IMG/VR virus record: IMGVR_UViG_3300011737_000031
Span: 1 to 26,231 of that record
Reading direction: 5' to 3' (one strand)
From: a virus
DNA length: 26,231 nucleotides
Shown here: piece after piece, positions 15,701 through 23,586 of the stretch
Layout of the letters: each line of letters begins with the position of its first letter
Position numbering within the stretch: position 1 is the stretch's first letter
The notes under the pieces: generated by a model
What the model was told of the DNA's origin: nothing
Databases searched by the model: none
The model's input: the letters and a program-made list of their open reading frames with translations, nothing else
Position numbers and translations under genes: made by a program

Positions 15701-16246
15701 ATGAATACGAATGGGAAAAGCAATGAGGAATTGATGGACCACATTATCAAAGTTGCTTCTGAAACAGCCATTGACTATTACAAGAAGCGAGAAAAAGAAG
15801 AACGAAAAAAACGCGTAGATCGTCGTTTGCGAAATACACGGTTATTGTTAGAGAACTATAAAAATTTTAAAATACATTGTACAGAAAATGCTGTAAAGAT
15901 TGATCACCTATTGGATCCTGACGATTTCGAATTTCTTGAATATGGAGACCTGGTGATTGAATCAATTGTCAAAAGTAAAAAACGGACAATTTCTATGGTA
16001 GCATACTTAGACCACATGCTGGAAGTTTATCGAGCTATAGCAGATTCTTCCAACAAAAAAGAAGAGATAAGAAAGTATCATACTGTTCTTAAATATTATA
16101 TTTTGGACCCCAGAGTGGAAATTGAAGAGATAGCAAATGTCCACGGAGTAAGTGTAAAAACAGTTAAACGTGATTTAGACAATGCCGTTAAATCCATTGC
16201 TGCCTTGATTTTTGGAGTAGATAGTGTCAGATTCATAGATTATTAA
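15701..16246 (+). CDS. Late-gene transcriptional regulator, ArpU/RinA-like with a sigma-70 region-4-like C-terminal HTH
   Basis: It is the last gene before the terminase genes. The N-terminal RLLLENYKNFK motif resembles ArpU-family proteins. The C-terminal IEEIANVHGVSVKTVKRDLDNAVKSIAALIFG looks like sigma region 4.2. Confidence 0.65.
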   Translation: MNTNGKSNEELMDHIIKVASETAIDYYKKREKEERKKRVDRRLRNTRLLLENYKNFKIHCTENAVKIDHLLDPDDFEFLEYGDLVIESIVKSKKRTISMVAYLDHMLEVYRAIADSSNKKEEIRKYHTVLKYYILDPRVEIEEIANVHGVSVKTVKRDLDNAVKSIAALIFGVDSVRFIDY

Positions 16247-16264
16247 TTTGATTGCTAGATGTCC

Positions 16265-16293
16265 ATTGACTGGGTTTTGATAAAATGGTATTA
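16265..16293 (+). promoter_or_regulatory. Near-consensus sigma-A-type promoter with an extended -10
   Basis: TTGACT (16265-16270), a 17-nt spacer ending in TGG, then TATTAT (16288-16293). Confidence 0.6.
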
Positions 16294-16324
16294 TGATAAC
16301 ATAAAATAATTCTGAATACGGATT

Positions 16325-16362
16325 AAAAGGCATCTGATACCATGTGTACAGGTGCCTTTTTT
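16325..16362 (+). terminator. Rho-independent terminator
   Basis: AAAAGGCATCTG (16325-16336) pairs with CAGGTGCCTTTT (16349-16360) with one G-U pair. The loop allows an extra TAC/GTA pairing. The T-run spans 16357-16362. Confidence 0.78.
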
Positions 16363-16383
16363 GCGTTTATATGAGGTGACGAT

Positions 16384-16515
16384 ATGAAGGCTACACCTAA
16401 GCAAAAACAGCCAGACAAGAAACCGAAAGAAGAAAAAGTAAACTGGAAAGAGATCATGGGAATGAATCGAGATAGATATGGTCGGGGCCCAGGTGGAGCG
16501 ATGAGAAGAAAATAA
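16384..16515 (+). CDS. Small basic protein (43 aa, MKATPKQKQPDKKPKEEKVNWKEIMGMNRDRYGRGPGGAMRRK)
   Basis: SD GAGGTGA lies 4 nt upstream of the ATG. It is the first ORF of the late block and is below the track cutoff. Confidence 0.5.
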   Translation: MKATPKQKQPDKKPKEEKVNWKEIMGMNRDRYGRGPGGAMRRK

Positions 16516-16534: not shown

Positions 16535-16963
16535 ATGAGTAAATTAACATTAAAACAACAGAAATTCGCTGATGAGTATATCATCACTGGAGTTGCTGAA
16601 ACTGCTGCATTAAAAGCAGGATATAGTAAATCTTATGCTAGAGCACGATCAAGTGAATTGTTGGCAAATATCGGCATAAAAAAATATATAGATGATCGGT
16701 TAGAAGAAATTAAATCGAAAAAGGTTGCTGATCAACAAGAGATAATGGAATTCCTCACAAGTATTGTGCGAGGAGAGCAAACAGAAGAAACGTTACGAGG
16801 TATTGGTGAAGGAGCACAAACGATTGACGATATTGAAGTTGCTGCTAAAGAACGAATTAAAGCCGCTGAGCTTCTTGGTAAACGATATGCGATGTGGACT
16901 GATAAAGTGGATCAGACGAATACGAACGTAGAAATAAACGTAGGTGAGTGGGATGACGAGTAG
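16535..16963 (+). CDS. terS: Terminase small subunit
   Basis: The N-terminus LKQQKFADEYIITGVAETAALKAGYSKSYARARSSELLAN is the typical Terminase_2-type HTH. SD AGGAGGTGA lies upstream. It overlaps the TerL start. Confidence 0.87.
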   Translation: MSKLTLKQQKFADEYIITGVAETAALKAGYSKSYARARSSELLANIGIKKYIDDRLEEIKSKKVADQQEIMEFLTSIVRGEQTEETLRGIGEGAQTIDDIEVAAKERIKAAELLGKRYAMWTDKVDQTNTNVEINVGEWDDE

Positions 16964-18200
16964 CATCGTTTTAAATTTCCCTAAGCCTAGTAAGGTCTTT
17001 AATAAGCACATTTATACACAGCTTGATGACTACGACACGTTTACAGAAGTCCATTATGGCGGTGCTTCCAGTGGGAAGAGTCATGGAGTTGTACAGAAGG
17101 TCATTCTTAAAGCTTTAAAACCTTGGAGTAAGCCTAGAAGGATGCTTTTTCTTAGAAAAGTAGCAACGACTGTGAAAGACTCCATTTTTGAGGACGTATT
17201 AGCCTGTTTAAGCTCTTTTGGAATATTAGGTAGGTGTAAGGTCAATATGAGTGATTATCGCATCACATTACCTAACAGAGCGACGCTAATTTTCAAAGGA
17301 ATGGATAACCCGGAAAAAATCAAATCGATTAAAGGTGTTTCTGATGTCATCATGGAGGAAGCAACCGAATTTACGCTTGATGACTATACGCAGTTGACTT
17401 TACGTTTAAGGGATAAAGGCCATAAACAAAAACAAATATATTTGATGTTTAACCCAGTTTCTAAAGTGAATTGGGTTTATTCGTATTTCTTTATAAATAA
17501 ACACAAGAACACAAAGATAGTACAGAGCACGTATAAGGATAATCGATTCTTGGACGAAGGAACAAAAGCAAACATCGAAGATCTAGCAAACAGGAATCCT
17601 GCCTACTATAAGATTTATGCTTTAGGTGAGTTCGCAACTCTAGATAAGTTAGTCTTTCCGAAGTACGAAAAAAGACTTCTAAATCGACAGGAATTAGTCC
17701 ATCTGCCTTCTTATTTCGGACTAGACTTTGGATATATAAATGATCCATCAGCATTTATTCACTTGAAAGTGGATGAGGCTAATAAACGAATCTACTTCAT
17801 CGAGGAGTACGTAAGGAAAGGTCTACTGAATGACCAGATTGCCCAGGCTATTGTTGACCTAGGATACTCGAAAGAAATCATTACTGCCGATTCGGCAGAG
17901 AAGAAGTCCATCGCTGAGATTAAGCAAAAAGGCGTTGCTCGAATTAGACCAGCAAAGAAAGTGCCTGATTCAGTAATTCAAGGGATTCAATTTCTATCAC
18001 AATATGAATTTATTGTGGATGAACGGTGTGTAAAGCTTATTGAGGAACTTGAAAACTATACCTGGAAGAAAGATAAGAACACCAATGAATATACAAATGT
18101 TCCAGTAGACAGCTACAACCACGTGATTGATGCGTGTAGATACGCTGTTGAAAATATAAATAACAGAATCAAAATCAAAACATTCAAAGGAGGGTTGTAA
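16953..18200 (+). CDS. terL: Terminase large subunit (PBSX/Terminase_3-like)
   Basis: Walker A YGGASSGKS, a Walker B-like DVIMEEATE, and a C-terminal nuclease region. ATG at 16953 lies 6 nt after AGGTGA (16941-16946) and is preferred to the track GTG at 16944. Confidence 0.92.
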   Translation: MTSSIVLNFPKPSKVFNKHIYTQLDDYDTFTEVHYGGASSGKSHGVVQKVILKALKPWSKPRRMLFLRKVATTVKDSIFEDVLACLSSFGILGRCKVNMSDYRITLPNRATLIFKGMDNPEKIKSIKGVSDVIMEEATEFTLDDYTQLTLRLRDKGHKQKQIYLMFNPVSKVNWVYSYFFINKHKNTKIVQSTYKDNRFLDEGTKANIEDLANRNPAYYKIYALGEFATLDKLVFPKYEKRLLNRQELVHLPSYFGLDFGYINDPSAFIHLKVDEANKRIYFIEEYVRKGLLNDQIAQAIVDLGYSKEIITADSAEKKSIAEIKQKGVARIRPAKKVPDSVIQGIQFLSQYEFIVDERCVKLIEELENYTWKKDKNTNEYTNVPVDSYNHVIDACRYAVENINNRIKIKTFKGGL

Positions 18201-23269: not shown

Positions 23270-23586
23270 GATTCTATCCACTCTTTTTATATGCGAACCA
23301 ACAAATCGGAAGCGATCAGCTGAATAATCCTATTTATGAAAGAGTCTTAATAGGAGAATCAATTGGTCGTTTTTCTTCTTGGTCAGATAAAGAAGTAGCC
23401 TTGGATGCAAGAGAAGTAACGGTGAATAACCGTAAAATACTTACTCGTGCATCAAAAGCTGTCATATCTGAAGCTGACAAAGTAAAAATAAACGGGTTGT
23501 ATTATTCAATTAAAGATGTGACTGGTGACGACTTTGATCGATGGCGCTTAGTTATTGTTAATCGCTATGGAAGTGAGAAGCTGTGA
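23266..23586 (+). CDS. Head closure / stopper protein
   Basis: 106 aa. Its ATG overlaps the upstream stop. The call rests on synteny in SPP1/HK97-like head-tail joining modules. Confidence 0.65.
   Translation: MRFYPLFLYANQQIGSDQLNNPIYERVLIGESIGRFSSWSDKEVALDAREVTVNNRKILTRASKAVISEADKVKINGLYYSIKDVTGDDFDRWRLVIVNRYGSEKL

Follow-up and report, generated by a model that had tools for sequence, protein, structure and literature searches.

A conserved promoter–terminator unit between a late-gene regulator and the packaging genes of Gram-positive phages, a candidate antitermination switch

Why would a phage place a strong terminator directly behind a strong promoter, at the entrance to its own late operon? 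We addressed this question in a 26,231-nt viral sequence (IMG/VR record IMGVR_UViG_3300011737_000031, positions 1 to 26,231; hereafter the window), which is a temperate siphovirus-like prophage of a Bacillaceae host. The original prediction, made from the sequence alone, had pointed to a consensus promoter followed about 30 nt later by a terminator, and had proposed either a processive antitermination switch run by a non-Q protein, analogous to the lambda PR'-tR' (6S RNA) unit, or a phage small RNA. We therefore first verified the elements in the window, then asked whether they are conserved, and finally compared them with known late-gene control systems.

Sequence elements between the regulator and the late operon

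The window carries an integrase and a repressor on the minus strand at its left end, a long rightward block of replication genes, a gene for a 181-aa protein (15701-16246, + strand), a 43-aa basic ORF, the terminase genes, and portal and head genes. The gene for the 181-aa protein, whose closest relatives are in Niallia, is the last of the early rightward operon. The terminase small subunit (terS; 16535-16963, + strand; Pfam Terminase_2, E = 3e-30) starts the packaging and morphogenesis genes and is followed by the terminase large subunit (terL; 16944-18200; Terminase_3, E = 3e-61). The 137-nt gap between 16246 and 16384 contained every element that had been described, and the observation is therefore confirmed, although the promoter and TAAAAT coordinates originally given (16265-16293 and 16301-16306) were 1 nt too low. 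The promoter consists of a -35 TTGACT at 16266-16271, a 17-nt spacer, TGg with the TG at 16286-16287, and a -10 TATTAT at 16289-16294. It matches 10 of 12 consensus positions plus the extended -10, and is the only + strand site of that quality between 10 and 26 kb. The predicted start is A16301, and a -10-like TAAAAT lies at 16302-16307 (+2 to +7), overlapping AATAAT at 16305-16310; together these positions (16302-16310) are a candidate sigma-A-dependent pause signal. Only 19 nt separate the stop codon of the regulator gene (16246) from the -35.

The intrinsic terminator at 16325-16362 has arms AAAAGGCATCTG (16325-16336) and CAGGTGCCTTTT (16349-16360), which form 12 pairs with one G-U around a 12-nt loop with a small inner helix, and a T6 run at 16357-16362. 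The 86-nt fold gave -21.9 kcal/mol (z = -3.1), and the hairpin is the strongest canonical + strand terminator between 3.6 and 23 kb. The hairpin is symmetric, with A4 before the stem and T6 after it, and also scored as a weaker minus-strand terminator, although no convergent gene is nearby. The predicted terminated RNA is about 60-64 nt. The 21 nt that had been placed between the terminator and the Shine-Dalgarno sequence (SD) run instead from the end of the T-run to the ATG at 16384, and the SD (GAGGTG, 16373-16378) starts 10 nt after the T-run. The ORF that begins there (16384-16515, + strand) encodes a 43-aa, very basic protein (pI 10.6), which had only weak PHROG hits of unknown function and is conserved in two related loci of the window's clade (L004 and L005; L numbers denote the loci that we compared). 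No terminator separates the regulator gene from the promoter and there is no room for another promoter after the terminator, so that every late transcript would have to cross it. Further terminator-like hairpins with T-runs (-10.8 to -13.6 kcal/mol) lie at 23284, 24307 and 25244 on the + strand, inside the head-tail gene block; if functional, they would call for processive antitermination.

We also examined whether the segment resembles a known RNA. No tRNA or tmRNA was found, and no Rfam 15 family reached its gathering threshold in the window or in 20 related loci. A permissive search gave STnc40 (31.6 bits against a gathering score of 45, E = 6e-4 in a 251-nt search) and ncr1015, both below threshold; the latter maps between pps and xynA in B. 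subtilis, not in a phage, and was dropped. Neither a complementary target of the leader nor a second operator copy was found in the window. By eye, a 7/8 match would allow the leader to pair with the 3' arm of the terminator in the window, but such an antiterminator is not general in the family.

Conservation of the unit behind homologues of the regulator

A single promoter-like match would not exceed chance, since the scan found 30 such sites against 43.7 in shuffled sequence. We therefore collected loci encoding homologues of the 181-aa protein, from one genome per species (80 loci) plus three phage records, and read the DNA after each stop codon. Of 70 non-redundant loci from Bacilli and Clostridia, down to about 30% identity, 59 carried a presumed operator and a promoter in the same register. 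They span Bacillales, Paenibacillus, Lachnospiraceae, Oscillospiraceae, Faecalibacterium and a C. difficile phage, at 29-96% protein identity. A DNA search against isolated phages matched only terS, with no close relative of the regulator or the leader, whereas a protein search found six distant phage homologues. An exact-motif scan of viral contigs returned mostly chance matches in coding DNA, but all 11 hits in promoter context had a regulator homologue directly upstream. The genes after the module are packaging-region genes, namely terS or ParB-like nuclease genes.

The presumed operator consists of hexamers repeated at exactly 11 bp that begin a few bases after the stop codon and flank the -35. 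Across the 59 loci, identity at a shift of 11 was 4.47/6 between R1 and R2 and 3.56/6 between R2 and R3, against 0.8-2.0 at shifts 7-10 and 12-15, and an A-tract usually lies between R1 and R2. The repeat word changes from phage to phage (TGTCA, GGGCA, TTACA, TCTCA, ATGATA), as expected of operators co-evolving with a helix-turn-helix (HTH). In the window the equivalent positions (16249-16276) are degenerate: R1 is TGATTG (16249-16254), R2 is TGTCCA (16260-16265) and R3 is TGGGTT (16271-16276), of which only R2 is clear. L004 and L005 share only R2 and the sequence downstream of it, and a repeat finder detected no direct repeats in 16200-16400. In one Clostridia MAG (L069), three tandem copies of the operator-plus-promoter unit (GGACA-N6-GGACA-ttgcaa-aGGCA ... 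TGaTAATAT) lie about 85 nt apart in the first ~200 nt after the regulator gene.

Of the 59 loci, 53 have an untranslated leader. In these, the mean -35 match is 4.28/6 with TTGACA or TTGACT the commonest, TG is present in 51 and the spacer is 17 nt in 42. The promoter sits at a fixed offset of about 17-26 nt after the stop codon of the regulator. A hexamer with A at position 2, T at position 6 and at least 4/6 matches lay 7-10 nt after the -10 in 47 of the 53, whereas shuffles gave a mean of 10.7 and a maximum of 21 in 500, and other offsets gave 2-14. At 5/6 matches the count was 35, against 3.3 in shuffles. Positions 3 to 5 of the hexamer were A in 76%, 100% and 91% of 33 de-duplicated leaders. 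A hairpin plus T-run followed 45-125 nt after the -10, mostly at 57-62 nt, in 49 of the 53, compared with 6.5% of 80-nt control windows in the same loci. The hairpins were too different for a MAFFT alignment of the leaders to reveal covariation, and hairpin-anchored pair counts were used instead; these showed 48 distinct hairpin sequences, with pair types varying at every stem position. The loci are related by descent and the counts are not independent events, but they span two bacterial classes and entirely different hairpin and operator sequences. The remaining six loci (L036, L037, L039, L056, L067 and L076), all Oscillospiraceae, keep the operator and promoter but have a ribosome-binding site 8 nt after the -10 and start translation of a ParB-nuclease/methyltransferase gene about 20 nt after the -10; they lack both the -10-like hexamer and the leader terminator. 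These results indicate that the unit is a real, selected element, and that its -10-like element and terminator are gained and lost together.

Many of the longer leaders (L003, L006, L009, L014, L015, L017, L019, L031, L032 and L033) carry a C/U-rich, CCUCC-like (anti-Shine-Dalgarno-like) stretch between the -10-like element and the terminator, and Lachnospiraceae loci have a conserved GCAGTTTTTCCGGGAAAGGAGAG...AGCTCCTCCA segment after the terminator. Both may be a second layer of control, and both are absent from the short leader of the window.

The regulator and its relation to known late-gene systems

We next investigated the 181-aa protein (21.3 kDa, pI 7.8), which had been said to look like an ArpU/RinA/sigma-r4-type protein. 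It belongs to phrog_1558 (E = 1.9e-46), annotated as of unknown function, a sizeable family with 1246 clusters at 50% identity in 1.84 billion proteins. Pfam and NCBIfam gave only sub-threshold SpoIIID, Sigma70_r4_2 and ECF-sigma hits. Among 31 members, none matched the curated RinA (TIGR01636) or ArpU (TIGR01637) models at E <= 1, while Sigma70_r4_2 appeared in 13 and DUF1492 (PF07374) in 3, all below cut-off. The RinA model worked on known members, with 80alpha RinA scoring 204.7 bits and Javan633 43.1 bits on TIGR01636, and hhalign against RinA gave a probability of 1.7%. The protein is thus not a member of the ArpU or RinA families by their curated models. Two AlphaFold models (pLDDT 83.7 for the window protein and 78.6 for a 34%-identical homologue) predicted a long N-terminal helical hairpin, a third long helix and a C-terminal three-helix HTH. 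Foldseek searches reproducibly found sigma region 4 in the PDB, and phage sigma70_r4 and DUF1492 proteins in BFVD. The invariant residues (DRRLRN..LLL.NY) lie at the tip of the predicted N-terminal hairpin while the operators differ between phages, which fits a conserved contact with host machinery, as inferred from the alignment.

The layout was then compared with the lambdoid Q and Pseudomonas AlpA modules (lambda PR'-tR' and PalpB-tB), whose cis requirements are a regulator-binding element in the promoter, a -10-like sequence at about -1 to +6 that causes a sigma-dependent pause, and a terminator downstream (PMC9371919). The regulator gene likewise lies immediately upstream, a short terminated RNA is expected without the regulator, and the -10-like hexamer and the terminator are both present in the window; for the binding element, the family shows the 11-bp repeats and the window the single clear R2. 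The differences are that the protein is unrelated in sequence, that the presumed operator flanks the -35, further upstream than the lambda or AlpA sites between -35 and -10, that the terminator is much closer (+25 to +62, against +194 in lambda), and that the hosts are Firmicutes. A C-terminal HTH is predicted, but the Q21/AlpA fold, with its N-terminal ring for the RNA exit channel, was not recovered: AlpA (7xyb_G) was the best PDB hit of the first model, but weakly (E = 0.38, TM 0.33, rmsd 9 A), and neither AlpA nor Q was among the 50 matches listed for the second. We therefore rejected this similarity as evidence.

Proteins in the same genomic position in Gram-positive phages form the Ltr superfamily (RinA, ArpU, LtrA/Sigma70_r4, LtrB/DUF1492 and LtrC), described as activators that bind direct repeats just after their own genes (PMC3753634). 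The phrog_1558 protein shares with them the position as the last gene before terS, direct repeats starting right after the stop codon, as seen across the family, a predicted sigma-4-like C-terminal HTH and a terminator between the regulator and terS, but it is 181 aa and near-neutral, not about 130 aa and basic. The same order of repeats, sigma-A-like promoter and hairpin plus U-run was found in phages with RinA or LtrC regulators. In 80alpha (RinA; NC_009526, 1222-1407 of our locus L205), it reads TGGCA-N6-TGGCA, then TATTAT-GATAGTGTAG-GATATT, then a 10-bp hairpin plus T6, followed by terS. Javan633 (L206, about 1010-1200) and Javan47 (L207, about 236-380), both of the RinA family, have TGaTAAATT-GATAGTGTGAAATATTT and similar, followed by a terminator. 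80alpha and Javan633 share the TAnnAT-GATAGTGT string with Bacillales members of the window's family. In phi13 (LtrC; L210, 3029-3142), the published repeat and TATA-box coordinates place TSS23 about 28 nt upstream of a 10-bp hairpin plus U-run that precedes the first late gene.

Candidate mechanisms and their implications

The original interpretation was partly supported. Our best explanation, to which we give a probability of about 0.45, is a Q/AlpA-type, promoter-proximally loaded antitermination switch run by a sigma-region-4-like, non-Q protein. In this view, host RNA polymerase can start at about 16301 on its own, and sigma-A would re-bind the -10-like TAAAAT and hold the polymerase briefly around +17 to +19. 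Without the regulator, this transcript and any read-through from the early operon would both end at the terminator, leaving a roughly 60-nt RNA, an insulated early operon and silent late genes. With the regulator bound at the operator, the paused polymerase would be modified, ignore this terminator and probably later ones, and transcribe the small ORF, terS, terL and the rest. What the analysis establishes is the sequence elements, their fixed register, their conservation and their co-occurrence, whereas the start site, the pause, the binding and loading of the regulator and the read-through are inferred from sequence alone. The reading is favored by the self-sufficient look of the promoters, which is unlike typical activator-dependent promoters, and by a hairpin sequence that varies freely while the -10-like motif is fixed, which points to recognition by conserved host machinery. 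It could also account for an unexplained finding in 80alpha, where RinA needs DNA more than 155 bp upstream of the mapped 5' end, which lies after the hairpin, and the mechanism was concluded to be 'more complex' than direct contact (PMC3152322); an upstream start plus antitermination would remove that difficulty. However, that 5' end came from triphosphate-enriched RNA, which argues for a real start after the hairpin in that phage. The absence of reproducible similarity to Q21, AlpA or lambda Q, the degenerate repeats of the window and the position of the operator also weigh against this reading.

The main rival, which we consider less likely, is ordinary Ltr-type activation, in which the regulator binds the repeats and recruits or stabilizes RNA polymerase. 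The terminator would then act as an insulator and attenuator that ends the early operon and damps leaky late expression, and a strongly activated promoter would push enough polymerases through an imperfect stop. Related late regulators are documented as activators (PMC3152322, PMC3753634, PMC13123087): RinA, ArpU and LtrA-C were shown genetically to be required and sufficient for terS expression, and the phi13 P23 reporter was silent without Ltr, although the construct ended at +50 (PMC13123087). R1 and R2 sit at about -51 to -36, a classic activator position, the predicted C-terminal domain is sigma-4-like as in the Ltr proteins, and the six leaderless loci suggest that the protein also acts at initiation. 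On the other hand, activation does not explain why a -10-like hexamer is held 7-10 nt after the -10 in 47 of 53 loci, nor why it disappears together with the terminator. The promoters already have an extended -10 and good -35 elements, the window hairpin (12 bp, T6, A-tract) looks efficient, and a strong terminator after the promoter in 49 of 53 lineages would waste most late transcripts.

It is unlikely that the regulator is a sigma-like factor or a surrogate for sigma region 4, with its HTH reading the phage-specific repeats as a '-35' and its conserved N-terminal part working with the TAnnAT-GATAGTGT / TAAAAT region as the '-10' of a private promoter whose sigma-A look is partly coincidental. 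Weak ECF-sigma hits (TIGR02937 in 13 of 31 members, best E = 0.0018), fold hits to sigma-4 and to whole ECF sigmas, the pattern of a variable upstream and a conserved downstream element, and the GATAGTGT shared with RinA phages are in line with such a role. But all scores are far below the curated cut-offs (16-20 bits against 42.9; 16.2 bits in one TIGR02937 search), the N-terminal half is predicted as long coiled helices with no recognizable region 2, three repeats at an 11-bp period suggest an oligomeric DNA binder, the spacing of about 26 nt from the repeats to TAAAAT does not fit a sigma, the promoter looks like a sigma-A promoter, and the terminator remains unexplained. A small RNA with a single-stranded 5' seed (AUAAAAUAAUUCUGAAUAC) as the main product is the least likely reading, despite the compact unit of conserved length, the conserved 5' segment and the sub-threshold Rfam hits, because only a -10-like motif is conserved across Bacilli and Clostridia, no Rfam family reached threshold, no target was found in the window, the unit always sits exactly between the regulator and the late genes, and late genes would still need a way past the terminator.

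Late-gene switching controls virion production, transduction and the mobilization of pathogenicity islands in Gram-positive bacteria, and for RinA-type regulators the accepted model is promoter activation. Antitermination by Q and AlpA is already established; the unit described here is one instance of a widespread, apparently undescribed late-operon control module with Q-type cis logic and a non-Q, sigma-4-like regulator, and no paper linking these regulators to antitermination was found in the library searched. A conserved promoter, pause-like element and terminator behind several regulator families gives a concrete alternative to activation. If the mechanism holds, the unit would be a compact, portable part of about 120 bp and one 21-kDa protein, with phage-specific operators, and it predicts a short RNA in lysogens that could serve as a prophage marker. 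More broadly and still tentatively, the sigma-4-like late regulators of temperate Firmicute phages, namely the phrog_1558 family and, by shared cis layout, at least RinA and perhaps LtrC, would be Q-like antiterminators that load onto RNA polymerase at a sigma-A-dependent promoter-proximal pause and carry it through a leader terminator. This would extend Q-type antitermination to Firmicutes, as a convergent Gram-positive counterpart of lambda Q built from an unrelated protein.
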